Shown one piece after another: positions 2,484 to 46,170 of a DNA stretch of 64,000 nt. The DNA lies in assembly GCA_964359735.1 (NCBI GenBank), contig CAYHTZ010000003.1:21993-85992 (forward strand). The letters are read 5' to 3'. The position numbers were made by a program, and so were the translations under genes. Source of the DNA: an uncultured Candidatus Saccharibacteria bacterium. GTDB taxonomy: Bacteria > Patescibacteriota > Andersenbacteria > UBA10190. The notes beneath the pieces are model-generated. The model was not told the origin of the DNA and made no database searches. It worked only from the letters and a program-made list of their open reading frames with translations. Position 1 is the stretch's first letter, and each line of letters begins with the position of its first letter.

Positions 2484-3718
2484 CGCTAGAAGCGGCTAAA
2501 ACAATCTTTATGCTCGGCATTGGAGGGACCGGCATGCGAGGGCTGGCGCGCCTTCTCTCTGCCCACGGGAAAACAGTGGTGGGCTCAGACCAGCAATACG
2601 ACGTGATTAAGAATTGGCCAGATCTCAAAGAGTACGACATTGTGCCTGAAGGAGAAGGCGAACGCTTGCTGAAAAAGGCGGACCTCCTGGTGCACACCGA
2701 CGCGGCCGAAAAAGATCACCCACTGATTAAGGCAGCCCAGCGGGAGAATATTCCCGTCCTGGCGTATCAAGAAGCACTGGGGGACTTTTCCCGCTCACTG
2801 ACAACAGTGGCGGTCACAGGCACTCACGGGAAGTCTTCCACGACGGCTTTTCTGGCTCACATTTTAATTGAGGCAGGAGCCGACCCCAATGTGCTCGTGG
2901 GGGCCCCTATGCCGGCGTGGGGTGGGAGTTCGAGAGTGGGGAAGAGCGATCTGTTTATTGTGGAGGCAGATGAATATAGGGAACACTTTCTGACATTCTC
3001 GCCGGCCCATGCCATCATTGTTTCTGTTGATTTCGACCACCCCGACTACTTCAAATCTCTGGAAGACGTGCAAGCGGCCTATGCGCGATTTAAGGCGCGC
3101 ATCGCGTCCGGAGGCGTTGTACTCACGACGGCGGATGTTCAGCATGAAATTGATGATGTGCCCTCTCCTTTGCCTGGGAGACACATGCAGCACAATGCCG
3201 CACTCGCGGTCAAGATGGCAGAGGTGTTGGGAGTGCCCCGCGAACAGGCAGTCGCAGCCCTCAAAACATTTCCGGGGATAGGTAGAAGATTCGAAAGGTT
3301 GGACAAGATTGGGAAGATGGATCTCTTCACAGACTATGGCCACCACCCTGCCGAGATTAAAGCCACCTTCCTGGCCACTCGAGGAAAGTTTGCCGGCCAG
3401 CGCATACTGACGCTGTTCGAAGCTCATACGTTAGAGCGCTTAAAAACTTTTTTTGACGGATACGTGGAAGCCTTATCAGGGGCAGATGGGGTACTCTTGG
3501 TACCAGTGTTTATACCGGCCGGGCGGGAGCACGAATCAGCGGAGGCAAGAGAGTGGCTCCAGAAATTAGAACGAAAACTTCCGGGTATTGTATGGCGTAT
3601 TGACGATTGGAAGGAGCTCCCAGCTCAACTTACGCAACTCTCGGATGAGTTTGACGTGGCCATTGCGTTCACCGCTGGACTCCTAGACGCAAAGTTGAGG
3701 ACTCTTTCCTTTACTTAA
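2480..3718 (+). CDS. murC: UDP-N-acetylmuramate--L-alanine ligase MurC (Mur ligase family)
   Basis: '[16 protein letters not shown]' MurC N-terminal Rossmann motif. '[12 protein letters not shown]' Mur-ligase P-loop. ATGA start/stop overlap with murG. Confidence 0.8.
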
Positions 3719-3731
3719 TAATATCTATGTA

Positions 3732-3759
3732 CCTCTCCATAGATCGATCTATGGAGAGG
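3732..3759. promoter_or_regulatory. 28-bp perfect palindrome CCTCTCCATAGATCGATCTATGGAGAGG (copy 1 of 3), candidate operator
   Basis: Read directly: perfect reverse-complement symmetry. Lies in the 61-nt gap between murC stop (3718) and the PEP-utilising domain gene (start 3780/3804). The same core recurs at 28416-28441 and 28890-28909 flanking a TrpR/YerC-like regulator gene. Confidence 0.5.
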
Positions 3760-3779
3760 TTGCCCGAAGAGGGCTTTCG

Positions 3780-4835
3780 TTGCATAGTCAGCTAGAGCTC
3801 GTAATGATCAAACTTTCGAAAGTATTCACACGTGAACGCTCACTGTTTTACATGCGCATGTGGAATGACAGCGATCGCATGGGCTTTTCCCGCTGGTTGA
3901 GTACTGATGTTCAGAACAATATGTTTTGGCGAGAGGGGAACATTAACAAGATTTCAGTTTGGTATGACCGAGAGGAATACGACCGGCTAGGAGAGCTAAC
4001 GGCCGAAAAACTCCACGTTGATTCAAAGTTATTTGAAAAAATGGTTCGTGTTTTTCACGATCTCTGGCGCCCGATAGCCCCATATGTGCAAAACGGTAAG
4101 CTCATAACATCTGCCGACGAGCTGGAAAAGTTCTACCAAGATGTGGTTGCGTGGTGGTCGGTGATGGCATTGATGTTTCTTATCCCTAATGTGCCAAGAA
4201 TCCCGAGGAAGCAACGTGAGGCGGCGCTGGCACTGCGCGAGAAGGTAGAACTTTTTTCAGATGCAATGGATCACCTCATGGTGCGCTATGTGGTAGAAGA
4301 ACTACCTCAATATAAAGAATTGGCGTGGGTTATGATGCCAGAAGAAGCTATCAAACTTGGTCGCGATGAGCTCTCTCAGTATGAGCTGGATAAGATCCGT
4401 GGGCGACTCCATGGATTCGCTCTCTTAAATGAAAAGATTTGCAGCAGGCAGGAATTGCCAGGCGCTTTAGCGAAGCAGGGAATACAGTTGGAGCAAGAAC
4501 ATACCACGGCGGGGCTGCATGAAATCAGTGGGACGCCGGCCAGCGCAGGAATCGCGCGAGGCAGGGTGCGCCAAATTTTGCTCAAGGAACAGATACACGA
4601 GCTCCAGAAGGGGGAGATCCTGGTGACAGAAATGACTAATCCTAATTACGTACCAGCCATGAAGAAGGCGTCGGCAATTGTCACTGATGAGGGAGGTATC
4701 ACCTGCCATGCGGCTATTGTCAGCCGGGAGCTGGGCAAGCCGTGCGTCATTGGCACTAAAATTGCAACGCGTGTCCTAAAAAACGGCGATGAAGTTGAGG
4801 TAGATGCAGACAAGGGAACAGTGAAGCTGCTTTGA
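3780..4835 (+). CDS. PEP-utilising enzyme mobile (His-swivel) domain protein, no PEP/pyruvate-binding barrel; N-terminal domain of unclear function
   Basis: C-terminus '[50 protein letters not shown]' is the phosphohistidine swivel domain of PEP synthase/PPDK/rifampin phosphotransferase-type enzymes. Start ambiguous: TTG 3780 or ATG 3804. Paralogue at 21879-23297. Confidence 0.7.
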
Positions 4836-4918
4836 CAAGAGATCGTCTGGCTTTAGGAACGGCTCTGGACAAATAGCCAGCAGTTTTGGTATTGTGTTTC
4901 GTTACAAGAACGTTAGTA

Positions 4919-4947
4919 TTGACGAAATGTCAAAAATACTTAATACT
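4919..4947 (+). promoter_or_regulatory. Candidate sigma70-type promoter (TTGACG, 17-nt spacer, AATACT) with an inverted repeat TTGACgaaatGTCAA overlapping the -35
   Basis: Sequence only. Located 9 nt upstream of the ATG at 4956 in a 120-nt non-coding gap. Confidence 0.3.
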
Positions 4948-4955
4948 CAACCGTT

Positions 4956-5972
4956 ATGGAGCACAGTGTAAATATCAACGACCTCACGGAGAAGCTGTTA
5001 AACAGCCTGGATGCCCGTTCCCGGGACATCGTTATTCGTAGATTTGGGCTTAAATCAGGCCAAGCGGAGACCCTGGAAAGCATCGGTAAGGAGTATGGAA
5101 TTACCCGTGAGAGGGTGCGCCAGATTGAGTCTTACACCAAAAAGACCCTGGCAACTTTACGGGAGCAAATAACCCCTCTGGTAGACTTGCTGGAAAAGAC
5201 CTTTGCGGAACACGGGGGGGTTATGGCCGAACCGCATGTCGTAGAGGTGATAGGCGCCGAACCCCAGGTTGTCCGTTTTTACCTGAATGTCTTGCCGGAA
5301 TACATATATGTCACTCACAAAGAGCTTTTCCACCCGCATTGGCGGCATGAACGGCGAGCAGGAGATGACGCCGATAAAATTGTGGAATGCGCTTGCGAAA
5401 TACTCGTTAAGAAGCAGCTGCCCCTTGAGGAGAGCGAGCTGATTGAAAGCGTAAAGGTACGGCTCGCAGGAGAGGGTGGCGCCTTACCTTCGCCTCACAT
5501 TATTGCGGCTTTTGTCGCCAGCAAACCGTTGGAGCGAACTGTGTTTCAGCAGTGGGGGCTAGCCGAGTGGCCGGAGGTGTCCCCCCGCGGAGTAGGTGAT
5601 AAGGCATACGCGGTGCTGCGTCGGCATGGGAAGCCCGCCCACTTCCGTGAAATCGCGAGCATGATTTCCGAGGCTAAATTTGATACGAAGGCAGCTAACC
5701 CCCAAACCGTGCACAATGAGTTGATTAAAGACGACCGCTTTGTACTGGTGGGGCGGGGGCTCTACGGGTTGAAAGAATGGGGATATGTGCCGGGCACCGT
5801 GGCGGATGTTTTAGAGGCAATCCTGCGCCGTGCCAAGGTTCCCATGACGCGCGAGGAGCTCACCGCCGAAGTGTTGAAACAAAGGATTGTTAAAAAGAAT
5901 ACCATTTTACTCGGCCTTCAGAACCACAAGCGGTTCGTGAGAACAGCTGATCAGCGGTACACATTGCGATGA
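4956..5972 (+). CDS. Sigma-70 region-4-like HTH + C-terminal HARE-HTH domain DNA-binding protein
   Basis: N-terminus 'ETLESIGKEYGITRERVRQIESYTKKTL' matches the sigma-70 region 4.2 signature (xTLEEVGxxFGVTRERIRQIEAKAL). C-terminal 'FVLVGRGLYGLKEWGY' matches the HARE-HTH signature seen in RpoE-delta N-terminal domains. Combination called from motifs only. Confidence 0.65.
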   Translation: MEHSVNINDLTEKLLNSLDARSRDIVIRRFGLKSGQAETLESIGKEYGITRERVRQIESYTKKTLATLREQITPLVDLLEKTFAEHGGVMAEPHVVEVIGAEPQVVRFYLNVLPEYIYVTHKELFHPHWRHERRAGDDADKIVECACEILVKKQLPLEESELIESVKVRLAGEGGALPSPHIIAAFVASKPLERTVFQQWGLAEWPEVSPRGVGDKAYAVLRRHGKPAHFREIASMISEAKFDTKAANPQTVHNELIKDDRFVLVGRGLYGLKEWGYVPGTVADVLEAILRRAKVPMTREELTAEVLKQRIVKKNTILLGLQNHKRFVRTADQRYTLR

Positions 5973-5988
5973 GGAGTAGCGAGAAGCA

Positions 5989-7332
5989 TTGTATACTGGA
6001 ATAATGCTTCTCGTCTCTCAAGGACTTAGCAGCAGCGCACCAAGTACGCTGCTCGTGCCGGAGTTCCTGGATATGGTGGTGACATTGGCGCCAGTGCTCT
6101 TAGGGTTGGCCTGGCTTCTGATAACATTTTTTGCCTTGTGGTTTGCGCGAGAACTGTATGGCTTTATCATTGCCGTGCCCATATATTTGGGGACGATAAA
6201 ATATACTATTCTGCAGGTAGTTTTGCCCGAGGATGCAGAGGAGACGCCGAAGTCGATGGAGGATGCGATCTCACACTGGGGCGGGATACACTACAATCCT
6301 GATGTGAAGGAGAGGTACTTTGATGGCTTTGTGGATTGGTGGTACAGCCTTGAGGTGCAATGCACTCCCGAGAAGGTGCGTTACTTTCTCTTTATCCCCA
6401 CTATATTCCGGCCTTTCTTTGAAGGCGTCATCTACGGCCAGTACCCCGAAGCAGAAATTCAAGAAGCCGAGGACTACACGCTGAACTATGATTACAGAAG
6501 AGTCCGGCAGGACTTCGAAGTGTACGGCACCGATATGATTTTGTCGCTGGACGATGTGTACCCGATTCGCTCGTATACTCAATACGGCGACCCCTTGTCT
6601 CCTACGGAAACATTCATTGATCCGCACCAATCCATGATTGAGGCTTACTCAAATGTTAACCCGGGCGAGGAATACTGGTTCCAAGTAATTGTTTGGCCGG
6701 CGAGTCCGGCTAAGAAAAAATCTTGGGTGGCGAAGGGGGAAAAAGAAATTGCTCAGATTACCGGGCGGGCAAAGGAGGCCGGCCCCGGCTTCTTTAAACA
6801 ACTGAGAAAGTTTTTTACGCGCATCCCTCAGGAGGTTGTGAACGTGCTGCGCGGCCGGCACGCCTCCGCCGGGGAGGAAGGAGAAGAGCAACTCGATGTC
6901 CACTTCTTCGATCCCGTGGAAACCATAAAAATGGAATCGATTTTGCGGAAAATTTCTCGAGATGTGTACCGCTGCATGGTGCGCCTGATATACATTGCGC
7001 CCAAGGGGAAGCTGCATAAGCCTAACATCGGCCGCGCCATTGGCCCTTTCAAGCAGTTTTGGGGCGCGAACGCATTTAGGCCTGATCCAAAAACAAAGTC
7101 GAATGGGGTGGATTACATCATGAAGGAGCGGCGCCGGCTTTACCGTGAACGCACTATCTTGGCCGAGTACCAGTGGCGGGACCCTTTGGGCATGGGACGC
7201 GGACCATATATGCTGACGGCGGAGGAAGTAGCCACGGTGTACCATTTCCCCACCAAATGGATACAGGCGCCTGTTTTAGAGCGCGCGAAAGCGGGAACCT
7301 ACTCGGCACCGGAGGAGGTACCGTATGTCTGA
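5989..7332 (+). CDS. Membrane protein (2-3 N-terminal TM helices + large soluble domain), partner of the downstream T4CP-like ATPase
   Basis: Hydrophobic N-terminus 'VVTLAPVLLGLAWLLITFFALWFA...IIAVPIYLG', then 360-aa hydrophilic domain. Stop overlaps the start of the next gene (ATGTCTGA), indicating translational coupling. Confidence 0.55.
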   Translation: MYTGIMLLVSQGLSSSAPSTLLVPEFLDMVVTLAPVLLGLAWLLITFFALWFARELYGFIIAVPIYLGTIKYTILQVVLPEDAEETPKSMEDAISHWGGIHYNPDVKERYFDGFVDWWYSLEVQCTPEKVRYFLFIPTIFRPFFEGVIYGQYPEAEIQEAEDYTLNYDYRRVRQDFEVYGTDMILSLDDVYPIRSYTQYGDPLSPTETFIDPHQSMIEAYSNVNPGEEYWFQVIVWPASPAKKKSWVAKGEKEIAQITGRAKEAGPGFFKQLRKFFTRIPQEVVNVLRGRHASAGEEGEEQLDVHFFDPVETIKMESILRKISRDVYRCMVRLIYIAPKGKLHKPNIGRAIGPFKQFWGANAFRPDPKTKSNGVDYIMKERRRLYRERTILAEYQWRDPLGMGRGPYMLTAEEVATVYHFPTKWIQAPVLERAKAGTYSAPEEVPYV

Positions 7333-9019
7333 AACACCTAAGATCCAAGAAATAACCGTGTTGGGGCAGACGAACTTCCGCGGGCAGGCGCGGGTGTTCG
7401 GCATCTACGAAGAAGACCGGCGGGGCCATGTCTATGTGTTGGGAAAGACAGGCATGGGAAAGACCACGCTGCTGCGGAATATGCTGGTGCAAGATATCCA
7501 AGGCGGCAAGGCGGTGGCACTCGTTGACCCGCATGGAGACCTAGCTAGTGAGCTGCTGGCTGCCGTGCCCTCGCGCCGATTGAACGATGTCATCTACTTC
7601 GACCCATCGGACGTGGCGTACCCCGTTGGCTTCAATGTGTTAGAAACTCCCAAGCCGGAGTATAAGTATCTCGTAGCCAGCGGCCTCATTGGCACGCTTA
7701 AGAAAATTTGGGCGGATTCGTGGGGGCCGCGGTTAGAATACATCTTGAGGAATACCATTTTAGCACTGCTTGATTACCCCGGCGCTACTATGCTCGGGAT
7801 ATCTCGTATGCTCACTGACAAAAAATACCGCGAACGGGTAGTGCGCAAAATTCAAGACCCGGTGGTGAGATCATTTTGGGTAAATGAGTTTGCTAACTAC
7901 AACGAGCGTTTTGCTAACGAAGCTATCTCTCCCATCCAGAACAAGGTAGGGCAATTTCTCTCCAGCGCCGTGATCCGCAATATTGTCTCGCAGCCGAAAA
8001 GTACCATTGACATCCATGACATTATGGACAACGGTAAGGTCTTGATTATGAATTTGTCGAAGGGGAAGATCGGGGAAGACAACTCGGCGCTCTTGGGAGC
8101 CATGATGATCACTCGCATCCAGCTGGCTGCCATGGACCGGGCGTATGTGCCGGAGAGCGAGCGGACAGATTTCTTTCTCTACGTGGATGAATTTCAAAAC
8201 TTCGCGACGGAATCGTTCGCCGGTATTCTTTCCGAGGCGCGCAAATACCGCCTGAATCTGGTGATTGCCCATCAATACATCACCCAGATGGAAGAACCTG
8301 TGCGCGATGCTGTCTTTGGAAACGTGGGCACCATCGTAGCCTATCGAGTGGGCGCCTTTGATGCCGAGTATTTGGAGAAGGAATTTGCACCATACTTTGT
8401 TCAATCGGACTTGGTAAACCTGGACCGATACTCAGCCTACATCCGCCTAATGATCCATGGCGTTACCAGCAAGCCATTCAGCATGAAGAACATTCCGCCG
8501 ACGCCGCAGTCGGAAGGAAATGCGGAGACGGTGCTCCGCGTCTCGCGCGAACGTTATGCCCGGCCGCGCGATATCGTGGAGGATAAAATCCTGCGGTGGA
8601 GCAGCAACACTGAGCCGAAACCGGTAAAGCGCACCCCCACGGCAGCCCCCCTTGCTCAAAAGCCCGTGCCGACGCAGCCCGCCCAGCCAGCCGCGCCGGC
8701 AAAACTTACTAAGGCTGTGCCGGCACCATTCCCGGCGATGTTCCAAACGCCGGTGGGAATGGCCGAGAGCGAGCCGCCAGAACCGGGGCCACTGATCACT
8801 GACCTCGCGAGCACACTCGCCGAAGAAGACCGCAAGCGCGGGCAGCAAAAAACTCAAGACCGAATTGGCAAGAAAATGTATGACACGTTGTGCGACCGCT
8901 GCGGGAAGGCGACGCAAGTACCTTTTCAGCCCACTCCGGGGAGGCCAGTGTATTGCCCAGAGTGCTTTGCGATTGTGAAAGCCGGGATTGAAGACCAGGA
9001 TTCGTCGATGCAGGGCTAA
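7325..9019 (+). CDS. VirD4/TraG/TraD-like (type IV coupling protein-like) P-loop ATPase with C-terminal zinc ribbon
   Basis: Walker A 'VLGKTGMGKTTLL'. Walker B-like 'LYVDEFQNFA' followed by 'LNLVIAHQYITQM' (the T4CP/FtsK-HerA clade pattern LDEF...Q...Q). P/A/Q-rich linker. C-terminal 'CDRCGK...YCPEC' CxxC-x17-CxxC. Confidence 0.65.
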   Translation: MSETPKIQEITVLGQTNFRGQARVFGIYEEDRRGHVYVLGKTGMGKTTLLRNMLVQDIQGGKAVALVDPHGDLASELLAAVPSRRLNDVIYFDPSDVAYPVGFNVLETPKPEYKYLVASGLIGTLKKIWADSWGPRLEYILRNTILALLDYPGATMLGISRMLTDKKYRERVVRKIQDPVVRSFWVNEFANYNERFANEAISPIQNKVGQFLSSAVIRNIVSQPKSTIDIHDIMDNGKVLIMNLSKGKIGEDNSALLGAMMITRIQLAAMDRAYVPESERTDFFLYVDEFQNFATESFAGILSEARKYRLNLVIAHQYITQMEEPVRDAVFGNVGTIVAYRVGAFDAEYLEKEFAPYFVQSDLVNLDRYSAYIRLMIHGVTSKPFSMKNIPPTPQSEGNAETVLRVSRERYARPRDIVEDKILRWSSNTEPKPVKRTPTAAPLAQKPVPTQPAQPAAPAKLTKAVPAPFPAMFQTPVGMAESEPPEPGPLITDLASTLAEEDRKRGQQKTQDRIGKKMYDTLCDRCGKATQVPFQPTPGRPVYCPECFAIVKAGIEDQDSSMQG

Positions 9020-9038
9020 ATGTGGTATAGTCAAGAGG

Positions 9039-9728
9039 ATGCGCGACATGGCGAGGGAAACAGAGAAAGTACCCATCGACCGACCATTTAATTTTAAAGA
9101 GGATGCCAACTGGCGGATTTTTCGCATTATGGCGGAGTTCGTCGAAGGCTTCGAGTTTTTAGCAGATCTGCGCAAAGAGGTGACGTTTTTTGGATCAGCA
9201 CGTTTCTCTGAGGAGTCCCGCTGGTACAAAGAGGCGCTGAAATTAGGGCGCCTGCTGGCCAAAGCTGGATTCACGGTGATCACGGGCGGGGGTCCGGGCA
9301 TTATGGAGGCCGGCAATCGAGGCGCCTATGAAGGCGGGGGGGAGTCGGTCGGTCTCGACATCGAATTACCAGCTGAACAGCGGCGCAACGCGTACGTGAA
9401 ACGCGGGATTGGATTCCACTACTTTTTCACACGCAAAGTTATGCTGAGAGCTTCTGCTCAAGCATATATCTTCTTCCCCGGAGGCTTTGGAACCGTGGAC
9501 GAATTTAGTGAGACAATTACGCTTATGCAGACTCAGAAAATGGAGCGCGTACCTGTTATCTGCATGGGCCGCGAGTTCTGGGAACCATTCCATGAGTGGG
9601 CGCGAACAATCATGCTCAGTAAGTTTGAAACCATCTCGCCTGAAGATCTTGACCTCTATACTATTGTGGATTCGGCAGAAGAAGTATTCGAGCTTATCAA
9701 GGATTCGCCAGAAAGAAAGTACTTTTGA
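9039..9728 (+). CDS. LOG family protein (TIGR00730; cytokinin riboside 5'-monophosphate phosphoribohydrolase-like Rossmann protein)
   Basis: 'VTFFGSARFSEES...VITGGGPGIMEAGNRGAYEGGGESVGL...FFPGGFGTVDEFSE' is the LOG/YvdD signature. Start set at ATG 9039 (AAGAGG just upstream); ATG 9048 is an alternative. The ORF-track start 8988 would overlap the previous gene. Confidence 0.85.
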   Translation: MRDMARETEKVPIDRPFNFKEDANWRIFRIMAEFVEGFEFLADLRKEVTFFGSARFSEESRWYKEALKLGRLLAKAGFTVITGGGPGIMEAGNRGAYEGGGESVGLDIELPAEQRRNAYVKRGIGFHYFFTRKVMLRASAQAYIFFPGGFGTVDEFSETITLMQTQKMERVPVICMGREFWEPFHEWARTIMLSKFETISPEDLDLYTIVDSAEEVFELIKDSPERKYF

Positions 9729-9773
9729 TCCACCAGTTTGAATCCAGTCAAGGGTCAGTGCTAGGCTTCTTGC

Positions 9774-11651
9774 ATGCGAAACATTAGTACAAATGAGCTG
9801 CGGGAACTCTACCAGCAATTCTTTGAGGGCAAAGGCCATACGCGGATTCCCAGCGCTCCGCTGGTGCCGGAGAACGACCCGACCACCCTTTTTACAGGAT
9901 CGGGAATGCAACCGCTCGTTCCGTACCTTTTAGGAGAGCCACACCCGCAAGGGAAGCGTCTCGTGAATTCGCAGAAATCATTTCGAGCCGAAGATATCGA
10001 GGAAATTGGTGACAACCGCCACACGACGTTTTTTGAAATGTTGGGCAACTGGTCACTCGGCGACTACTTCAAAGAAGAGCAGCTGTCGTGGATATTTGAG
10101 TTTTTGACTGAGGTGGTGGAGTTGGATCCCAGAAATTTATACGTAACTGTTTTTGCTGGCGATAAGAAAGCAAACATTCCCCGAGATACGGAATCCGTGG
10201 AAATTTGGAAGCGCTTGTTTCAAGAGAAGGGAATAGAAGCTCGTGACAGTGAGCTTCTCACTCCCCAGCAAGGAGGGCGGGAAGGCATGCAAGGAGGAAG
10301 AATTTTTTATTTCGGCGCTAGCAAAAATTGGTGGAGCAGAGCCGGACTCCCAGAGAACATGCCTCCCGGCGAGCCGGGCGGACCTGACTCCGAAATTTTC
10401 TATGATTTTGGAGCAGAGCATAATAGCGCTTTTGGCGAGCATTGCCATCCCAACTGCGATTGTGGCCGATTTATGGAAATTGGGAACTCTGTTTTCATGG
10501 AGTTTGTGAAACAGGCGGATGGCAGTTTTGTCTCTCTTCCTCAGAAAAACGTTGACTTCGGCGGCGGACTGGAGCGTATGGTGGCGGCGGCCCAACACAC
10601 TCCAGATATTTTTTCCGCGGTTGATCCATTGCGAGCGATCATTGAGCACATTGAGAACACGACTCACACCACCTATCAGAGCTCCGCGAACAAGGCTTCC
10701 TACCGGATCATGGCGGACCATATGCGTGCGGTGACGCTCCTTATCGGTGATGGCGTAGCTCCCTCGAACACGGATCGAGGATACGTGGTGCGTCGGTTGA
10801 TTCGACGCGCCGCGTACCACGCCCAGAAGCTAGCGGCTGAGGATGCTATCATCCAGCGGCTGGCCAACGTGGTCGCCGACCAATATGCCTCTGCCTACCC
10901 AGATGTAAAAAAACAATCGCGTCAGGTGGGGCACGCTATTCGGGAGGAAGTGCAAAAGTTTGGCGTGAGCTTGCGGCGGGCGCTAGTCAAGCTGGAGACC
11001 ATCTTAAACAAAGAATCGGGAATTTCTGGAGCAGAGATCTTCGAACTCAACACTGCCCATGGACTGCCACTCGATGCGATTTGGGATCGTCTCAAAGAGA
11101 GGAATATTCCCATCGGCTCAGGTGTTCAGGAGGACGTTCGGCGTAGGATTGCCGACCACCGGGAGAAATCCCGCACAGCGGGGACAGGGAAGTTTAAAGG
11201 AGGACTGGCTGACCACTCGGAAAAATCTGTCCACTACCACACGGCCACGCATTTGCTGCACCAGGCGCTGCGGGACGTGCTGGGAGAACATGTCTTTCAA
11301 AAGGGTAGCAATATTACGCCCGAGAGGCTCCGATTCGACTTTTCGCACACGGACAAAATGACACCCGACCAAATTCAGAAAATAGAAAACCTGGTGAACC
11401 AGAAAATCCAGGAGGATTTGCTCGTCCTCCGCGAGGAGACGACAGTCGCGGAAGCGAAGCAGAAGGGGGCGCTGGGCTTATTTGAAGAAAAGTATGCCGA
11501 CCGTGTGAGTGTATACTCTATGGGGAATTACTCCTGCGAAATTTGCGGGGGTCCGCATGTGGCACACACGGGGGAGTTGGGTCATTTCAAGATTACGAAG
11601 GAAGAGTCTGCCGGGGCTGGTGTACGCCGGATAAAAGCCGTATTAGAGTAG
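9774..11651 (+). CDS. alaS: Alanine--tRNA ligase (short form, 625 aa; catalytic + editing domains, C-terminal C-Ala domain apparently absent)
   Basis: N-terminal 'FFEGKGHTRIPSAPLVPENDPTTLFTGSGMQP...FEMLGNWSLGDYFKEE'. Editing-domain 'HTATHLLHQALRDVLG...GGPHVAHTGELG'. Confidence 0.9.
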   Translation: MRNISTNELRELYQQFFEGKGHTRIPSAPLVPENDPTTLFTGSGMQPLVPYLLGEPHPQGKRLVNSQKSFRAEDIEEIGDNRHTTFFEMLGNWSLGDYFKEEQLSWIFEFLTEVVELDPRNLYVTVFAGDKKANIPRDTESVEIWKRLFQEKGIEARDSELLTPQQGGREGMQGGRIFYFGASKNWWSRAGLPENMPPGEPGGPDSEIFYDFGAEHNSAFGEHCHPNCDCGRFMEIGNSVFMEFVKQADGSFVSLPQKNVDFGGGLERMVAAAQHTPDIFSAVDPLRAIIEHIENTTHTTYQSSANKASYRIMADHMRAVTLLIGDGVAPSNTDRGYVVRRLIRRAAYHAQKLAAEDAIIQRLANVVADQYASAYPDVKKQSRQVGHAIREEVQKFGVSLRRALVKLETILNKESGISGAEIFELNTAHGLPLDAIWDRLKERNIPIGSGVQEDVRRRIADHREKSRTAGTGKFKGGLADHSEKSVHYHTATHLLHQALRDVLGEHVFQKGSNITPERLRFDFSHTDKMTPDQIQKIENLVNQKIQEDLLVLREETTVAEAKQKGALGLFEEKYADRVSVYSMGNYSCEICGGPHVAHTGELGHFKITKEESAGAGVRRIKAVLE

Positions 11652-11655
11652 ATAT

Positions 11656-13020
11656 ATGCGGGATATTCGACCGGTACCTAAAAAACCTCCACTCGGAGGC
11701 ATGCCGCTGCCCAGCGAAGATGAGCTCTATGAAGTATCGCAATCGGCGAAGCAGCGGGGAAGCGAGCGAGCTTCAGTGCCAAGTAAAGCGCTGCGCGGGT
11801 CGCAAGTGCCGGTAACGAATGTGCACGTACCCGCTGAACCATCCCGGCCCCTGTTTGCGAAGGCACCACTCAGGGAGAAGAAACCTAAAACTCGCATCCG
11901 GCTGGGGAGCAAGGAGCGAGCGGCGGTATTAGTCCTCCTTTTAATTGTCGTGGTGGTGGTTTTGCTCAGTGCGGCTATTTTTTTGCCGCGAGCAGACGTT
12001 AAATTGATTTTACGAACGGCACCTCTTTTAGTGGATGAAGACCTGATTGTCCGCGCGGCGGCGGACGGCCCGAATGTTATTCCCGGAGCAACTTTTTTCC
12101 GACAGGTGTCAGTAGAAGGAACTGTCCCGGTCGAAAGTACCGAAATCGTGGGTACGAAGGCGACGGGCACGGTGCAGATTGTAAATCGCACTACTCAAGA
12201 GCAAAAAATCCGCGACAGAAGCCGGCTCATGACGAAAGAAGGGGTACTTTTTTACATGACACGGCATGTCATAGTTGCGCCGGACTCAAGAGCCAGCGTG
12301 GAAGTGGAGGCGGCCGAGGCGGGAGAAGTGGGGAATATTGCGCCGCAGCGGCTTAACTTTGCCGCACTCGACGCCTCGGCTCAGTCGGTAGTGTATGCCG
12401 AAGCAACCGCGGCCATCTCCGGCGGCAAGGGCGAGGAAGTGCGTGTGGTGCGTGAAGAAGATATTGAACGAGCCAGGATAGCCGCCAAAGAAGCCGCCCG
12501 CGCCAAGGTCCAAGAAGAAATTCAAAAAGAACTGCCCAGCGGCTGGGTGCTCCTGGAAGAGAGTTGGACAGCTGATTACGACTCTTTCAAGACAGACGGT
12601 GAGGTAGGCAGCCGGCAACCACAAATTGCTTACTCAGGCAATGCCACGGTACGCGTCTTAGGCTATGAATCAGCCAGGTTAGAAGAGCGTCTCCGCGCTG
12701 CGTTGGAAGAGAGGATCGACCAGGATTACGCGCTCTTCCCGGGGCCAATTTCCTACTCGAAAACAGTGAAAAGCGTGGATTGGGAGAAGGGAGAAGGGGT
12801 AATCGCGACCCGCGTCACCCACACTACGATTCCTGATTTTTCTTTAGAAACTCTCAAGGGGAAAATTGCGCGGCGTGGCGCAGATGAGGCGAAAACGTAC
12901 CTCGAAGGGCTTCCCGGGGTGCAGCGGGTAGAGCTGGCTTTTTCACCCTTCTGGGTGCGTTCGATCCCACGGATTGAAAAGCGAATTAACCTGGAAGTGA
13001 TCCCGGAGCGCCAGCCCTAA
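11656..13020 (+). CDS. Hypothetical membrane-anchored protein (basic cytoplasmic N-tail, single TM, large extracytoplasmic domain)
   Basis: ORF of 454 aa with TM 'AAVLVLLLIVVVVVLLSAAIFL'. No recognised domain. Confidence 0.5.
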   Translation: MRDIRPVPKKPPLGGMPLPSEDELYEVSQSAKQRGSERASVPSKALRGSQVPVTNVHVPAEPSRPLFAKAPLREKKPKTRIRLGSKERAAVLVLLLIVVVVVLLSAAIFLPRADVKLILRTAPLLVDEDLIVRAAADGPNVIPGATFFRQVSVEGTVPVESTEIVGTKATGTVQIVNRTTQEQKIRDRSRLMTKEGVLFYMTRHVIVAPDSRASVEVEAAEAGEVGNIAPQRLNFAALDASAQSVVYAEATAAISGGKGEEVRVVREEDIERARIAAKEAARAKVQEEIQKELPSGWVLLEESWTADYDSFKTDGEVGSRQPQIAYSGNATVRVLGYESARLEERLRAALEERIDQDYALFPGPISYSKTVKSVDWEKGEGVIATRVTHTTIPDFSLETLKGKIARRGADEAKTYLEGLPGVQRVELAFSPFWVRSIPRIEKRINLEVIPERQP

Positions 13021-21878: not shown

Positions 21879-23297
21879 GTGAGCGAAGATTGGGTAAAAG
21901 TCGTGGAAAGGCGTGGTCAAAGTGTCCTTATAAGTTCCTATTTCTATAATGGCGTTCGAACTAAGTACTTTCGTAAAACACTGGGAGTTGAGCACGGAAT
22001 TGATCACTACTTGATTGTAGATTTTTTTAACTATTACCTGGAATCTGAAGTGCTCAGATTCCAGGAGGCGATCAAGAGCGAAATTGAAAGCAACGACGCC
22101 AAATTCATTTCTCAGGCTCTTGAACAGCTCACGCGCAAGGGAGAGGAGTTAACTCATCTCGCCACAACTATTTCCAGAACAAAGAATCTGACTGCGCATC
22201 CAGCTTCGTTACTTCAAGAGTTTTCGGAGTTGTGTCTTGAATTTGGCCCTGCTATGTATTTCCCCATTCTCATCGAGCCGATAGTAGAGGCAAGGGCTCT
22301 AAACATTATTCAGCGGAGAATCCCCAAAGAAACCGAAAAATACTTTGCTCTCCTGACTGCTTCTCATCAGCCCACTGATGGAACAAAGGAACTGGTAAGC
22401 TTCTACAGACTTGCCGAGATGTATCACAAGAATCATCGGAAAATCACACTTCCAATTAAGCAAGCAGTTGATAAACACTTGCGGCAATTTGGTTGGCTAG
22501 CATTTACCAAATTCGTTGGCCGCCCATGGACTCAGCGAAGCATCATGGCACGCCTTGAGAAAATACCCAATCCCGGGGAAAGGTTACGTGAGCTCGAGAG
22601 ACAATACAAGCAAGAAAAAATTCAGGTTGAGAAGATCTTTAAGGAATATCAATTTACTAAAGCTGAGCGCGAATTTCTTCGGGAAGTCCAGCATCTGGCT
22701 TACTTTCGAACCTATCGGGTTGATGTGTACTCGAAAGCTGGTTATTTAATTAAGGATTTGCTCAGAATCATTTCCCGCAGACTCGATTTAACGGTTGCGG
22801 AGACAGTCTGGCTCACGTATGAAGAGATTCTTTCTCACCTTAGACGAGGGAAAAAATTCCCTAGGAAGATTGCCCGAAAACGTCAATACGGGACTTGGCA
22901 GCTGCTTTTTGAAAAAGGAAAAATGACGTTTCAGTACGAACCGCCATTCTTGGTGAAGGAACAAAAGCTCGATATTAACATTGTCAAAGGAACTCCCGCC
23001 TGTAGTGGGAAAGCCGAAGGACCCGTTGCGATAATCCGCGGAGTCAAGGAATTCGATAAAATGACTGATAAGGCCATTCTTGTCACCTCTATGACCACAC
23101 CAGACTTTGTGCCCCTAATGCAGCAAGCCGCTGCCATTATAACTGACGAGGGCGGCATAACGTGTCACGCAGCTATCGTTTCGCGAGAGCTCGGCGTGCC
23201 ATGTGTCATTGGCACTAAAATTGCGACCAAGGCTCTCAAAGACGGCGATGTCGTAGAAGTGGACGCAGATAAGGGACTAGTGCGAAAGCTGGCCTAG
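21879..23297 (+). CDS. PEP-utilising enzyme mobile (His-swivel) domain protein, long paralogue of 3780-4835
   Basis: C-terminus '[51 protein letters not shown]' nearly identical to the 3780 gene. The upstream 370 aa align with the 3780 protein over its length plus an extra N-terminal region. Confidence 0.7.
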   Translation: MSEDWVKVVERRGQSVLISSYFYNGVRTKYFRKTLGVEHGIDHYLIVDFFNYYLESEVLRFQEAIKSEIESNDAKFISQALEQLTRKGEELTHLATTISRTKNLTAHPASLLQEFSELCLEFGPAMYFPILIEPIVEARALNIIQRRIPKETEKYFALLTASHQPTDGTKELVSFYRLAEMYHKNHRKITLPIKQAVDKHLRQFGWLAFTKFVGRPWTQRSIMARLEKIPNPGERLRELERQYKQEKIQVEKIFKEYQFTKAEREFLREVQHLAYFRTYRVDVYSKAGYLIKDLLRIISRRLDLTVAETVWLTYEEILSHLRRGKKFPRKIARKRQYGTWQLLFEKGKMTFQYEPPFLVKEQKLDINIVKGTPACSGKAEGPVAIIRGVKEFDKMTDKAILVTSMTTPDFVPLMQQAAAIITDEGGITCHAAIVSRELGVPCVIGTKIATKALKDGDVVEVDADKGLVRKLA

Positions 23298-23527
23298 GAA
23301 ACCTTAGCGGAGTCCAACTTTCCAGTATCCCGGCGCATGCGATCGCGTTTTTCGAGCATACGAACTTCATATTCGAGTCGCGCAACTGCTTGGGGTATCC
23401 AAGCCATTTTCTCTACGTGTCTTTTGATGCGCTCGAGATACATGATCAGCACTTGACCAAGCTCTTCTGCCGTGCGCTCAGGCGCGTTTATCCACTCCTC
23501 GCCGTATTTCTTAGGACGGCACGACAT
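23294..23527 (-). CDS. Hypothetical small protein (77 aa)
   Basis: Charged, helical-looking minus-strand ORF directly downstream of the 23534-23806 ORF. The competing + strand ORF 23390-23773 is F/L-rich low-complexity. Confidence 0.35.
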   Translation of the reverse strand: MSCRPKKYGEEWINAPERTAEELGQVLIMYLERIKRHVEKMAWIPQAVARLEYEVRMLEKRDRMRRDTGKLDSAKVS

Positions 23528-23533
23528 GCGCGA

Positions 23534-23806
23534 TTAGAAAAAGCCGAGATGGCGCTGAATGGCCCGAATTTTATCTTTGATCCAAGAAATTTCGTCCTTG
23601 TTGGCCGAGGATACATCCTTGTGAATATTTTCAGTGATAGCTTTGAACTCATAAAGAATTTTCTCAGTTTGTTCCTCCATTTTCGACGAAAGGCGTGTTT
23701 CCAACTGATTCAAGTCAAGGTGAATATCTTCCTGCAACTCAGCGAGATGGTCCAACGCTGCAGGTTCTTTTGACTTAATCCAGGCCTTCCGGACTTTCAT
23801 GATCAT
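23534..23806 (-). CDS. Hypothetical small coiled-coil protein (90 aa)
   Basis: K/E-rich heptad-like sequence 'LAELQEDIHLDLNQLETRLSSKMEEQTEKILYEFKAITENIHK'. ATG at 23806 lies in the palindromic ATGATCAT. Confidence 0.4.
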   Translation of the reverse strand: MIMKVRKAWIKSKEPAALDHLAELQEDIHLDLNQLETRLSSKMEEQTEKILYEFKAITENIHKDVSSANKDEISWIKDKIRAIQRHLGFF

Positions 23807-23863
23807 TAGTGTATCAGATGGTTGCCCTTCGACAAGCTCAGGGTAAAACAGTAAACTGTTTTG

Positions 23864-25006
23864 ATGTCTAAGGGGGATTTTAGAATTGCTTTAGTGCATG
23901 ACGAACTGATACGCCGGGGCGGGGCGGAGGTAGTATTTGAGGAATTGGTGCGGATTTTCCCACACGCAGATATTTACACTCTATACGCCGGAGAGCCATG
24001 GTTGAACCTGGGAGAAATTCAAAAACCTATCGCGACCTCGTTTTTGCAACGTTTCCCCACATGGTTCCGGCGCCACCCGGGCAGGGTTTTACCATTCCTG
24101 CTTCCGGCCGCGGAGCAATTCGACTTCTCTGCCTACGACATCGTGCTCTCGAGTGCCAGTGCTTTTGCCAAAGCTATTATCACCCGCTCGGGCGTGCCTC
24201 ACGTGTGTTACTGCCACACGCCTACACGATACCTTTGGGAGCCCACTCAGCTTGCGCTTCGCGGGCCAAAGTTGCTAGCCATGCCGTTGCTTCATTACTT
24301 ACGTATGGCCGATTACGCTGGTGCTCAGCGCGTTGATTATTACCTGGCAAATTCAAAATACACGCAGCAACGGATTAAAAAGTATTACGGTAGAGAAAGC
24401 GAGGTGGTGTATCCACCAATACGAACAGAGTTCTACACTCCCAAAAGTTCAGGCTCAGCTTTCGCTGAGGCTTCCGCCGGCAGGCAGCGACCCTTTCTAG
24501 TCGTAGGGAGACTCACGCCAACGAAACATTTTGAACAGGCGATTGCGGTCTGTGAGAAGTTGCAGTTGCCAATCCTGGTGGTAGGCGGCGGCCAGGCCGG
24601 AGCGGAACTCACGCGACGGGCGGGCAAATACACTACTTTTACGGGGACGGTTTCTGACGAAGAGCTGCGCACGTACCTGCGCCGCGCACGGGCAGTCCTC
24701 ATCCCAGGCGTGGAAGATTTTGGCATGGTTGCGGCGGAGGCTCTCGCGTGCGGAACACCAGTAGTGGCTCAAGCGCGCGGCGGTGTCAAAGAAATTATGA
24801 CAGATGGGCGCCATGGTATTTTATACGACGGGCAAGGAGTAGAAGCCCTGGCTGAGGGGCTCCGGCGCTTCTCGGCAGCCGAGGCGAGGTTTCAGCCGGA
24901 GGCGCTCCAGCAGCAGGCCATGCAATTTTCGTCAGGAATTTTCCACAATTCGATTACAAAATACATTGCGAAAATTCTGGAACGCCGCCACAGTACATAT
25001 GGATGA
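23864..25006 (+). CDS. Glycosyltransferase family 4 (GT-B, group 1)
   Basis: 'RIALVHDELIRRGGAEVVFEEL' N-terminal GT4 domain. C-terminal 'VVGGG...E.FGMVAAEALACGTPVVA' E-x7-E region. Confidence 0.8.
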   Translation: MSKGDFRIALVHDELIRRGGAEVVFEELVRIFPHADIYTLYAGEPWLNLGEIQKPIATSFLQRFPTWFRRHPGRVLPFLLPAAEQFDFSAYDIVLSSASAFAKAIITRSGVPHVCYCHTPTRYLWEPTQLALRGPKLLAMPLLHYLRMADYAGAQRVDYYLANSKYTQQRIKKYYGRESEVVYPPIRTEFYTPKSSGSAFAEASAGRQRPFLVVGRLTPTKHFEQAIAVCEKLQLPILVVGGGQAGAELTRRAGKYTTFTGTVSDEELRTYLRRARAVLIPGVEDFGMVAAEALACGTPVVAQARGGVKEIMTDGRHGILYDGQGVEALAEGLRRFSAAEARFQPEALQQQAMQFSSGIFHNSITKYIAKILERRHSTYG

Positions 25007-43793: not shown

Positions 43794-44681
43794 ATGCGGC
43801 TTACCTTCCTCTGGAAAAGGGTTTTAACGTACGTACCGTCAGTTTTCTTAGGACTGCTTATCGCCGTGCCGGTCTTCAGCTTGGTTTGGTTTGTGCTTTT
43901 TACCGACACCTTCACGGTGCAAACTGTCACTGTTGTAGATGCACGACCGCAGACGGTGGAGCAAATTATGGGTGTGGCCCAGCGCATGCAAGGGAAGAAT
44001 ATCTTGTTTTTGCAAACTGATATTCTGGAGCAGCAAATTCTTACCGAACTGGCGCAAGTACGCATCGTCCATGCCGCGCGTAAACTCCCGGGAACTCTTA
44101 AGCTCGTGATTCAAGAAAAAACACCACAGGCGTTGCTGTTGGCATCGTCTACGTATTACTTCCTCGATGAAGGAGGCACAGCCTACGAAGAAGCGCGCCT
44201 CGACACCTTGCCGGGGGTGGTGCTGCCTACACTAAAAGTGAGCGGCGGCGAGGCTACCGTCACGATTGGGACGCAAGTGGTAGAGCCAGCCTTCATTCAG
44301 TTCGTTGAGCACGTGCAAACAGAGCTGCCGAACTTGGTGGCCGCCCAAGTGGTGGAAATCCGCATTCCCTCTCTCTCCGCTCGGGAAGTTCACTTTTCTT
44401 TAAGTAACAACTGGGAAGTGCGATTTGATAGCACCCGGGGAGCACAGTCTCAGCTCAACGTGCTTCGTCAGCTCATTACCAGCACCATACCTCCGGCAGA
44501 ACAGCAAACTTTAGAGTATATCGATTTGCGCATTCCTCAGCGTGTCTACTACAAGTCGAGAGGCAAGGCGGCTACTCCCGCTGCCACTGCGACACCATCA
44601 CCTCGCCCTGATGCGGAAACACCTCCTGATACTTCTCCTCGCGAGTCCGCTCCCACGGAGGCGGAAGCACAAGGGGAGTAG
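43794..44681 (+). CDS. FtsQ/DivIB-like cell-division protein (TM + POTRA) with P/A/T-rich disordered C-tail
   Basis: N-terminal TM 'VFLGLLIAVPVFSLVWFVLF'. POTRA-like 'FTVQTVTVVD...KNILFLQTDILEQQILTELAQVRIVHAARKLPGTLKLVIQEKTP'. Assignment by pattern. Confidence 0.5.
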   Translation: MRLTFLWKRVLTYVPSVFLGLLIAVPVFSLVWFVLFTDTFTVQTVTVVDARPQTVEQIMGVAQRMQGKNILFLQTDILEQQILTELAQVRIVHAARKLPGTLKLVIQEKTPQALLLASSTYYFLDEGGTAYEEARLDTLPGVVLPTLKVSGGEATVTIGTQVVEPAFIQFVEHVQTELPNLVAAQVVEIRIPSLSAREVHFSLSNNWEVRFDSTRGAQSQLNVLRQLITSTIPPAEQQTLEYIDLRIPQRVYYKSRGKAATPAATATPSPRPDAETPPDTSPRESAPTEAEAQGE

Positions 44682-46170
44682 CGCCAAAACCAGTTGTGTC
44701 GATTACCCACAATGAATGGTCTTCGCTGGCCACTACGCTTTCCCAGGAGGCCACGTCGTCGGGCACGAGCGCCGCTACGCCAGCGTAGTGGGGCAGCGCC
44801 TTGGGATCGGCGATGAGCTTGAGAGGAGGCAGCGGCACGGCCCGGTGCCCAGCATGAAAAACGGCAGGTAAAAAAATGAAGGGCGATGAAACATACAGTT
44901 TCTCTTCAGGCTGGAGTTGATTTGCGAGAGACACTACGGCTGCCTGCAACCCGGGACGGCGCGCGATTTCAAGCTCCTGCTGGTAGGCAAGCGCGGCGGA
45001 GAGGGAGAGGACAAGGACGCAGAGCCCAAGCGTCCAAGCGAGGCCTCGCGAGCGGAACCGTGTCAAAAGAGCGGCCAAGGCTACCCCAAAAAATATGTGC
45101 GCGAAAATGAGGAAACGATCGTGATAGAGGCTTTGGCCCATCACTGATATCACAATAATGAACGCGATCGGTACGACAGTGAGCGTCGCCACGAAATAGG
45201 CAGCGGCGTGCGACCGTGACTCGCCGACAACCAGCCAGAGGAAGGCGAGGAGGGTAAGCATCAACGCAAAATAAGCCCAGCCTTTGGCTACTGGTTCAAG
45301 CGTAGGTGCCGCAAAATGATAAAATGTGGTGATAGCCGTAGTCGCACTGAATTCGGGAACCCAAAAATTACCCTGCAGGCGTTGGACTTGTTGTACGAGA
45401 GTGGGCAGCCAGGGCAAATACATGAGGGCGGCAGCGAGGAAGGCCAGGGCGGCATGGCGAGCCAAAGGTTCCCGAACCACTTCATACAAGCGGGCGCGCG
45501 TGCGGACAAACAGCATACCTACGACAAAGAGCATCTGGGCCGCGAGCGTGAGAAAACCAAAGTTATGCACGTATACAAGCATAGCGGCGAGTACGCTGTA
45601 CGCTGCCCAGCTGAGAAGCGGGCGCGCGGAAGGGTTGCGCCCGAGACTGAGACGGCATGAGCGTAGGAGCAACCAGCTGGAAAGAAGAACGAGCGCGGGA
45701 ACAAGCGTGTACATCCGTGCATCCCACGCAAAGGGAATCTGCCAGGCTGAGACAGCGGTGAACGCGGCGGCGAGAATACCTGTCTCGCGCGAACGCCAGC
45801 TTGAGGCCGCAAACAGGTACGCTGAGGCGACTGCGACTCCCGCGAAAGCTACAGAAAGAGAACGCAGGCCTAGCAGTGAAGATCCAAAGACCCAGGTCCA
45901 CGCTTTGAGCAAGAGATAGTAGAGCGGGGGATGGACATCGGCCGCCGTGCGGCTGATTATTTCTGCAACAGGGAACAGCGTGATCCGCCACGTGAAAGCT
46001 TCATCAAACCAAATACTGCGGCTCGTCAACGGGTGCACGCGCAGGGCGATGCTCCCGGCGACCACTACCAAAAGAATTGTGAGTGCAAGACGGCGAGACA
46101 TACGGTTTTGAGTTCTACCTTTGAAAGGTATACTATAGAGGTCAAGACAGACAAAACACAGAAAGAGCAC
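44572..46170 (-). CDS. GT-C fold glycosyltransferase (family 39/ArnT/PMT-like, dolichyl-/undecaprenyl-phosphate sugar dependent)
   Basis: 'SIWFDEAFTWRI' DE motif in the first periplasmic loop, more than 10 TM helices, C-terminal soluble domain. 532 aa. Confidence 0.65.
   Translation of the reverse strand: MLFLCFVCLDLYSIPFKGRTQNRMSRRLALTILLVVVAGSIALRVHPLTSRSIWFDEAFTWRITLFPVAEIISRTAADVHPPLYYLLLKAWTWVFGSSLLGLRSLSVAFAGVAVASAYLFAASSWRSRETGILAAAFTAVSAWQIPFAWDARMYTLVPALVLLSSWLLLRSCRLSLGRNPSARPLLSWAAYSVLAAMLVYVHNFGFLTLAAQMLFVVGMLFVRTRARLYEVVREPLARHAALAFLAAALMYLPWLPTLVQQVQRLQGNFWVPEFSATTAITTFYHFAAPTLEPVAKGWAYFALMLTLLAFLWLVVGESRSHAAAYFVATLTVVPIAFIIVISVMGQSLYHDRFLIFAHIFFGVALAALLTRFRSRGLAWTLGLCVLVLSLSAALAYQQELEIARRPGLQAAVVSLANQLQPEEKLYVSSPFIFLPAVFHAGHRAVPLPPLKLIADPKALPHYAGVAALVPDDVASWESVVASEDHSLWVIDTTGFGATPLVLPPPWERTREEKYQEVFPHQGEVMVSQWQRE

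Follow-up and report, generated by a model that had tools for sequence, protein, structure and literature searches.

A split DUF8128–VirD4/TrwB-like ATPase gene pair kept in housekeeping surroundings across Patescibacteria, a candidate membrane-tethered translocation motor

The stretch of DNA analysed here (the window) comprises 64,000 nucleotides of contig CAYHTZ010000003.1, from an uncultured Candidatus Saccharibacteria bacterium placed by GTDB in the Andersenbacteria (Patescibacteriota), and the subject of this work is a pair of adjacent plus-strand genes within it, the first encoding a DUF8128 membrane protein and the second a P-loop ATPase related to the type IV coupling proteins (T4CPs). 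Both open reading frames (ORFs) exist as an initial annotation, made from the sequence alone, had described them. The gene of the membrane protein (the partner) spans 5989..7332 and encodes 447 aa if translation starts at TTG 5989 and 442 aa if it starts at ATG 6004; the identical NCBI protein, P0121, has 442 aa and fits the second start. The ATPase gene occupies 7325..9019 and encodes 564 aa, and its 5′ end overlaps the stop of the partner gene, as previously indicated, by the 8 nt ATGTCTGA (7325..7332, plus strand), in which the ATG of the ATPase lies over the TGA of the partner. A Shine-Dalgarno sequence, GGAGGAGG, is located 6 nt 5′ of this ATG, and both the overlap and the Shine-Dalgarno sequence are consistent with translational coupling of the two genes. 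In orthologous loci the distance between partner and ATPase genes ranges from −89 to +235 nt, with about half of the loci within ~20 nt; the exact 8-nt overlap is not kept across them, and tight spacing is the rule. A promoter and terminator scan of window positions 3600–10000 returned sites no more numerous than expected by chance, and the GC content of the 6–10 kb region equals the window average. At the other end of the ATPase gene, a LOG-family gene (8988–9728) has a longest-ORF start, TTG 8988, that overlaps the ATPase 3′ end by 32 nt; this overlap is probably an artefact of the longest-ORF rule, since an in-frame ATG at 9039 falls after the ATPase stop.

All the sequence features attributed to the ATPase by the initial annotation are present. 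The core (residues 1 to ~432; 7325..8620, plus strand), delimited by motifs and by Pfam and NCBIfam profiles, contains a Walker A motif, GKTGMGKTTLL (residues 40–50, with GKTGMGKT at 40–47), a Walker B region, YVDEFQNF (286–293, Walker B proper at 286–289), and the stretch AHQYITQ (315–321, with HQY at 316–318), and hydropathy analysis detected no hydrophobic or transmembrane segment in the protein. It is followed by a low-complexity linker (residues ~433–515; 8621..8869, plus strand), Pro/Ala-rich at ~430–490 and unconserved in the ortholog alignment, and by a treble-clef zinc ribbon of the CxxC-x17-CxxC type (residues 516–549) with a short tail (8870..9019, plus strand), whose cysteines are arranged as C523xxC526-x17-C544xxC547. 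These four cysteines and the residues of Walker A, Walker B, and HQY are invariant across 18 aligned orthologs. The two Walker motifs are separated by ~240 residues, with an insertion at ~100–230 that is predicted to be all-alpha from the model of a 42%-identical fused paralog, in which the equivalent region is helical throughout (H502–607).

The placement of this protein among VirD4/TraG-like ATPases of the FtsK-HerA group with a zinc ribbon, proposed at the outset, is sustained by the profile searches. In Pfam, the window ATPase matches TrwB_AAD_bind (32.8 bits, cut-off 20.5), DUF87 (31.9 bits, cut-off 23.2), and T4SS-DNA_transf (20.3 bits, cut-off 20.1), while TraG-D_C, with 20.4 bits, stays just below its cut-off of 22; the ribbon is recognised by zf_Tbcl_2 (58.1 bits, cut-off 27) and by the NCBIfam model TIGR04272, a CxxC-x17-CxxC domain (58 bits, cut-off 36). 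No FtsK_SpoIIIE family appears among the Pfam matches at E<=0.01, and a profile of the ATPase compared with PDB sequences matches only TrwB (1e-5) and DotL (7e-4). By these profiles, the window ATPase falls within the FtsK-HerA group, is of the VirD4/TrwB-like type, and carries a zinc ribbon at its C-terminus. Like TrwB of plasmid R388, VirD4, TraD, TraG, and PcfC (PF10412/PF02534), it is built on a P-loop nucleotide-binding domain whose Walker A and B motifs are set apart by an insertion, all-alpha as predicted from the paralog; TrwB is its best solved relative in sequence and a good match in fold through the 42%-identical paralog. However, conjugative T4CPs carry an N-terminal transmembrane domain in the same chain, whereas the window ATPase lacks one and the transmembrane segment resides on the separate DUF8128 protein; the window ATPase also differs from them in the extra zinc ribbon and in having no relaxase or type IV secretion system (T4SS) gene nearby.

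The partner belongs to DUF8128 by way of its homologs, an assignment inherited from their sequence annotations: PF26449 is recorded for most of them, from 23% up to 60–61% identity, whereas the closest two (100% and 66%) list none, and the ortholog in L081, a close relative (72% identical) from which the annotated context was taken, is flagged with a weak PF26449 match. The partner profile retrieves 3,385 representative clusters at E<=1e-3. The initial annotation had described a membrane protein with two to three transmembrane helices and a large soluble domain; the membrane segment and the large domain are upheld, but the number of helices is not, as hydropathy, ortholog comparison, and the structural model all give a single conserved N-terminal transmembrane helix, and the second hydrophobic stretch is unconserved and corresponds in the model to the soluble domain's first beta-strand. 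Since the positive charges lie only C-terminal of the helix, an N-out/C-in topology with a cytoplasmic soluble domain is predicted. The conserved elements of the protein are the motif EE(V/L)ATxYHFP and a proline-containing tail.

The AlphaFold2 model of the partner, derived from an alignment of 58 sequences (predicted local distance difference test, pLDDT, 85.9; predicted template-modelling score, pTM, 0.81), consists of a long N-terminal helix and subsequent alpha/beta domains. When compared with the PDB by Foldseek, its best nine matches are all TrwK/VirB4 chains of plasmid R388 (E 3.6e-5 to 3.3e-4, probability 0.99–1.0), and the next match is an unrelated protein with E 3.5e-3. The modelled soluble domain would thus resemble the N-terminal domain of VirB4 at the level of the fold, a resemblance and not a demonstrated homology. 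Pfam scans of all 58 DUF8128 members at E<=10 revealed no recurrent family and no CagE_TrbE_VirB, and a literature search on DUF8128/PF26449 found no paper.

Directly upstream of the pair, a third plus-strand gene (4956..5972) encodes a protein of 338 aa that combines a sigma-70 region 4 with two HARE-HTH winged-helix domains: Pfam gives 48 bits for Sigma70_r4 and 54 bits, in two stretches, for HARE-HTH, and the RNA polymerase (RNAP) delta N-domain model TIGR04567 gives 46.2 against a cut-off of 42. The protein is a putative DNA- or RNAP-binding adaptor or regulator on these matches; a literature search on the combination of HARE-HTH and sigma domains found nothing relevant. The conservation of the three genes was examined by synteny. 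Among the matches listed, homologs of the ATPase number at least 8,000 (>8,000); one genome per species was scanned, giving 595 relatives, and the best 80 of these 595 loci were examined, from Moran-, Magasanik-, Falkow-, Uhr-, Buchanan-, Kerfeld-, and Andersenbacteria and other Patescibacteria. In 67 of the 80 species loci the gene immediately 5′ of the ATPase gene, and in the same orientation, is a DUF8128 gene; 11 of the 13 loci that depart from this belong to a single derived clade, where the zinc-ribbon ATPase gene follows nrdR-nrdD-nrdG and no DUF8128 gene adjoins it. Of the 61 loci in which its position could be assessed, 54 have the sigma-r4/HARE-HTH gene directly 5′ of DUF8128, and secD-secF takes its position in five of the remaining seven. 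The conserved unit is a triad (sigma-r4/HARE-HTH, DUF8128, ATPase) set in variable housekeeping surroundings. Both the tight linkage of the ATPase to a membrane protein and the inclusion of the upstream gene, put forward in the initial annotation, hold across these loci, and the organism is, as surmised there, one with a reduced genome, a member of the Patescibacteria, in line with the labels of identical or near-identical proteins (‘Patescibacteria group bacterium’ or ‘Candidatus Andersenbacteria’). For a functional tie of the sigma-r4/HARE-HTH gene to the pair, which may exist, the evidence is the synteny.

The derived clade comprises loci L007, L013, L019, L041, L044, L045, L046, L064, L068, L071, and L080 (ATPase gene at ~10001), and in several of them a protein of 89–143 aa with a C-terminal transmembrane helix is encoded directly 5′ of the ATPase, which could be a replacement anchor.

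The surroundings of the pair in the window are likewise of the housekeeping type. Genes for FtsW, MurG, and MurC lie upstream, and those for the LOG-family protein, AlaRS, SecA, SecD, DnaX, and several aminoacyl-tRNA synthetases lie downstream; the larger ORFs also include ProRS, PBP2, Lys/AspRS, SerRS, H+-PPase, and others. In L081 the order is ftsW-murG-murC-sigma r4/HARE-HTH-DUF8128-ATPase-LOG-alaS-...-rpsM-rpsK-rpsD-rpoA. The Pfam scan of the window covered 28 proteins, that is, 25 ORFs of >=368 aa and three smaller neighbours, with small genes such as pilins outside the scan; within this scope no VirB4, relaxase, or integrase was found, either among the 28 proteins or in L081, in agreement with the T4SS-free context reported initially, and no NurA occurs near the pair. 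Nor was any T4SS gene detected in the scan of the 64-kb window or in flanks of up to 10 kb per side in the 80 loci, where the recurrent neighbour families are housekeeping ones, as judged from sequence and not by Pfam.

The two modules of the pair are also found in a single chain. Locus L024 carries, in addition to a split pair, an ORF of 831 aa with an N-terminal transmembrane helix, a DUF8128 region (partner hidden Markov model, 2e-27), and an ATPase region (1e-128), and no zinc ribbon was detected in it. Such fused paralogs, with the order transmembrane helix-DUF8128-T4CP-like ATPase and a length of ~830 aa, lie at L024:11200-13695, L084:10001-12499, and L083:10001-12535, and a database search with the L024 ORF returned at least 120 fused proteins of 767–858 aa, all with PF26449 and PF10412 and many of them annotated, for instance P0360 and P0367, as ‘type IV secretion system DNA-binding domain-containing protein’. 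A distance of 6 kb separates the split triad from the fused paralog in L084/L085, and in the loci of the two fused proteins that were looked up, L083 and L084/L085, the fused gene is near dnaX. The window ATPase shares 42% identity with the C-terminal half of the fused protein, and the junction lies in the linker that leads from the conserved EELATxYHFP motif to the N-terminus of the ATPase. Another fused protein, P0210, aligns colinearly with the window pair and has 52% identity in the ATPase. In a neighbour-joining tree of the ATPase domains, fused and split types constitute two paralogous clades, with P0210 basal to the split one. The fused paralogs agree with the window pair in their two modules and in the order of these but, unlike it, form one polypeptide of a separate clade, with neither a HARE-HTH neighbour nor a zinc ribbon, which is present in most split-type orthologs and lost in a few clades. 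Because the single-chain paralog is widespread and can share a genome with the split genes, the window pair is regarded as a split version of the transmembrane-DUF8128-ATPase architecture. In L083 and L084/L085, a protein of 155–161 aa without a Pfam match is encoded directly before the fused paralog.

The fused architecture was modelled with AlphaFold2 on a natural fused paralog. Its first PDB match is full-length VirB4/TrwK, over ~900 alignment columns with E 3e-12, and it is followed, in this order, by TrwB (template-modelling score, TM-score, 0.58–0.65 normalised to TrwB, root-mean-square deviation 5–7 A), HerA, and Cag-beta; as predicted, the fused protein resembles full-length VirB4 at fold level. 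On these models, VirB4/TrwK and the VirB3-VirB4 fusions would have the same overall build as the pair, with a membrane-proximal N-domain preceding an ATPase domain of the FtsK/HerA type. They differ from it in that the ATPase half of the window pair is closer to T4CPs, that the pair is encoded in two genes, and that no VirB3, VirB6, or VirB8 genes are adjacent.

Relatives of the pair in phages and defence systems raise the alternative that it is the decayed remnant of a conjugative element (integrative and conjugative element, ICE, or plasmid), a prophage, or a defence island. The T4CP-family matches of the ATPase are in line with this idea, and so is its match to mad8 of the MADS defence system in PADLOC (60 bits, E 6e-17, covering most of the model), which suggests by sequence that mad8 is a related T4CP-like ATPase. 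Moreover, the 824-position profile PHROG 5156 matches the ATPase with 198 bits and the partner with 28 bits, in the expected order, and gp156 of Bacillus phage G (825 aa) is a fused DUF8128-like and T4CP-like ATPase protein; both reproduce the combined architecture of the pair, although gp156 has <30% identity to it, lacks the N-terminal transmembrane helix, and is phage-encoded. On the other hand, the same gene order recurs amid housekeeping genes in many Patescibacteria lineages, the catalytic motifs are intact and invariant, and the window region has average GC, no repeat boundary, and, among the 28 scanned proteins, no integrase, relaxase, or VirB4. The rest of the MADS island (mad1–8) is absent from the window proteins scanned and from L081, where the neighbours are housekeeping genes, and 2.9 million viral contigs yielded only 11 distant homologs of the ATPase, all of them partner-less. 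As the triad is kept in variable housekeeping surroundings across lineages, vertical inheritance fits and a mobile-element remnant does not. Judged by synteny, these are core genes of the Patescibacteria that are passed on vertically with the chromosome, and a remnant of an ICE, which the initial annotation had already disfavoured, or of a prophage or defence island is ruled out by synteny and housekeeping context as a most improbable origin.

In phage G itself (L086, JN638751.1 89194-93336), where gp156 is mis-annotated as ‘MsbA-like’, gp155, a VirB4/TraG-P-loop-like ATPase, adjoins gp156 in this jumbo phage, and weaker homologs exist in phages CP-51, JL, Shanette, and TP-84 (CP-51-like and TP-84-like). 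The IMG/VR contigs L087–L097 encode ATPase-only homologs of ~360–680 aa, most of 400–450, without a DUF8128 or HARE-HTH gene; that of L087 is 59% identical to the window ATPase, and some of these contigs have a second ATPase of ~700 aa adjacent.

Taken together, the architecture of the pair and its paralogs points, with a probability that we rate as somewhat better than even, to a membrane-tethered hexameric translocation motor, in which a DUF8128 anchor and a T4CP-type ATPase are the two halves of one machine. The DUF8128 protein would act as the membrane anchor or adaptor, with one transmembrane helix and a cytoplasmic module similar to the VirB4 N-domain, and the other half would be a soluble TrwB/VirD4-family ATPase with an extra C-terminal zinc ribbon, so arranged that the pair would reproduce, from N- to C-terminus, the module order of the single-chain protein of ~830 aa. 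TrwB, VirB4, HerA, and FtsK suggest by analogy that the ATPase assembles into a hexameric ring; its partner would fix this ring to the cytoplasmic side of the membrane, where ATP would drive the movement of a polymer, nucleic acid being the likeliest, or the transfer of a substrate to an envelope channel. The two genes would then supply co-translated halves of one motor, and the sigma-r4/HARE-HTH DNA-binding protein may deliver or select the substrate. The involvement of this third protein is presumed, and the motor may either serve a chromosomal T4SS or work independently, so that the stand-alone module suggested by the initial annotation, possibly for DNA uptake or export, is one candidate role among others.

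Several observations weigh against this interpretation. The NCBIfam equivalog models for T4CPs and VirB4 score far under their cut-offs with the window ATPase, which in this respect departs from the conjugative T4CPs: the TraD and VirD4-like CD1115 models TIGR03743, TIGR03754, and NF045973 give 48 bits against 366, 35 against 648, and 31 against 250, respectively, and TIGR00929 (VirB4) gives 19.6 against 643. The likeness between DUF8128 and the VirB4 N-terminal domain, with VirB4 as the top PDB match of both the partner and the fused-paralog models, comes from predicted models only, with low global TM-scores (~0.3; ~0.33 for the partner model), and the profile search against PDB sequences returned nothing that would link DUF8128 to VirB4. 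The fused-paralog model is only moderately confident in its domain arrangement (pLDDT 78.6, pTM 0.57). One clade has the ATPase without an adjacent DUF8128 gene, and therefore the partner is either encoded elsewhere in those genomes or dispensable, and the HARE-HTH gene could encode a housekeeping transcription factor that lies next to the pair without a functional tie to it. Quinonero-Coronel et al. (2025, Microb Genom, PMC12102498) report that the S. epibionticum copy of the T4CP homolog is non-essential; this speaks against a role that the cell cannot do without, but redundancy between two paralogs could account for it. Finally, the physical interaction of partner and ATPase, the hexamer, and the nature of the substrate are all properties that we infer.

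The family to which the ATPase belongs has recently come into view. According to the same source, 5,713 homologs of VirD4-type T4CPs are present in 2,918 of 3,035 Patescibacteria genomes (96%; PMC12102498). The window family is almost certainly that of these orphan T4CP homologs: like the window ATPase, the orphan proteins are T4CP-profile-positive ATPases, with ~2 copies per genome, encoded away from virB4. The oddity of the family is thus already in print, and the window pair is one ortholog among thousands. The available text of the paper contains, however, no DUF8128 partner or domain, no split and fused forms, no zinc ribbon, and no sigma-r4/HARE-HTH neighbour, and as far as searched, the DUF8128 module with its VirB4-like fold, the split/fused dichotomy, the zinc ribbon, and the HARE-HTH neighbour have no earlier description.

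These data also bear on a specific version of the motor reading, in which the pair is the missing coupling protein of the patescibacterial T4SS, with the motor docking through DUF8128 on a VirB3/VirB6/VirB8 membrane complex encoded elsewhere near the origin and recruiting protein or DNA substrates. The ATPase belongs to the T4CP family, and the essential T4SS of S. epibionticum has no recognisable coupling protein and relaxase (Wang et al. 2023, PMC10633639), yet T4CP homologs are nearly universal in the phylum (96% of genomes) according to PMC12102498, where T4CP genes are also described as frequently encoded away from virB4. A fold like that of the VirB4 N-terminal domain, if the models are correct, would suit docking on the same membrane complex; the difference between 96% of genomes with T4CP and 80% with VirB4 is, by our own reckoning, roughly what incomplete metagenome-assembled genomes would give for a two-copy and a one-copy gene; and redundancy of the two paralogs could explain the non-essentiality. 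Against it, virB4 is close by for only 148 of the 5,713 homologs, in S. epibionticum the T4SS is essential but the T4CP homolog is not, and relaxases are almost absent from the phylum (PMC12102498); no T4SS gene was detected in the window scan or in the flanks of the 80 loci, and the conserved neighbour is a DNA-binding protein and not a T4SS part. We regard this version as a possibility to be entertained tentatively.

A somewhat more doubtful alternative is a DNA translocase independent of any T4SS, working in chromosome segregation, dimer resolution, or septum clearance in the manner of FtsK/SpoIIIE/SftA, or in DNA uptake or export, with the HARE-HTH protein for DNA recognition and the zinc ribbon for DNA or partner binding. 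FtsK/SpoIIIE and HerA belong, like the window ATPase, to the ASCE P-loop superfamily; a hexameric ring is expected in each case, as is a logic of DNA pumping at the membrane, and HerA is among the fold matches of the fused-paralog model. Vertical inheritance in a core chromosomal setting next to genes of division and the envelope (ftsW-murG-murC in the lineage of the window; secDF, ftsE, and an FtsB-like gene in others), the conserved DNA-binding neighbour, the presence of two paralogs per genome, comparable to SpoIIIE and SftA, and the proximity of the fused paralog to dnaX in L083 and L084/L085 all agree with such a role, and exaptation of T4CP homologs is raised as a possibility by the authors of PMC12102498. 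Nevertheless, the window ATPase has no FtsK_SpoIIIE match in Pfam and no gamma domain, and in comparison with HerA-NurA it shows a generic DUF87 P-loop match only, with no HAS-barrel and no NurA partner. The association with the dcw cluster is confined to a few lineages, no competence genes are adjacent, and the roles assigned to the zinc ribbon and the HARE-HTH protein are guesses. In addition, ftsK is already annotated in Saccharibacteria, in TM7x (PMC10768705), and the idea of an FtsK replacement is weakened for this reason.

A broader proposal, which we consider speculative and rather unlikely, is that the family represents a near-universal patescibacterial branch of the VirB4/VirD4 radiation, joining a VirB4-like N-module to a coupling-protein-like motor in cis or in trans and operating as a T4SS-free chromosomal translocase of DNA or nucleoprotein, guided by the sigma-r4/HARE-HTH adaptor. 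If true, it would amount to a housekeeping system for DNA handling that has so far gone unrecognised, and it might represent an evolutionary intermediate that links VirB4 and T4CPs. The likeness of DUF8128 to the VirB4 N-domain, as far as the models go, bears in any case on the divergence of VirB4 and coupling proteins, and together with the fused, split, and Bacillus-phage forms it offers concrete constructs for biochemistry. Patescibacteria account for a large share of bacterial diversity, with tiny genomes and dependence on host cells, so a protein that ~96% of the genomes retain, mostly as two copies, must matter to them. Their T4SS, essential for epibiotic life, has no recognised coupling protein; if the split motor is that protein, it would show how substrates reach the T4SS, and if not, it would be a new membrane-bound translocase.

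Other features of the window lie apart from the triad. In the proteins encoded at 3780–4835 and 21879–23297, the only recognisable domain is a C-terminal PEP-utilising-enzyme mobile domain, the N-terminal regions being without a Pfam match. A local dip in GC (0.463 at 22001–24000, against ~0.53–0.56 elsewhere) occurs near a glycosyltransferase gene at 23861–25006 and may mark foreign DNA. Two long ORFs have no Pfam match, one of 532 aa at 44572–46170 on the minus strand and one of 434 aa at 53353–54657 on the plus strand; the former overlaps plus-strand ORFs and may not be a gene. A protein of 454 aa encoded at 11656–13020 has an N-terminal transmembrane segment and a weak Baseplate_J-like match (30 bits), and its family recurs 3′ of alaS in several related loci.

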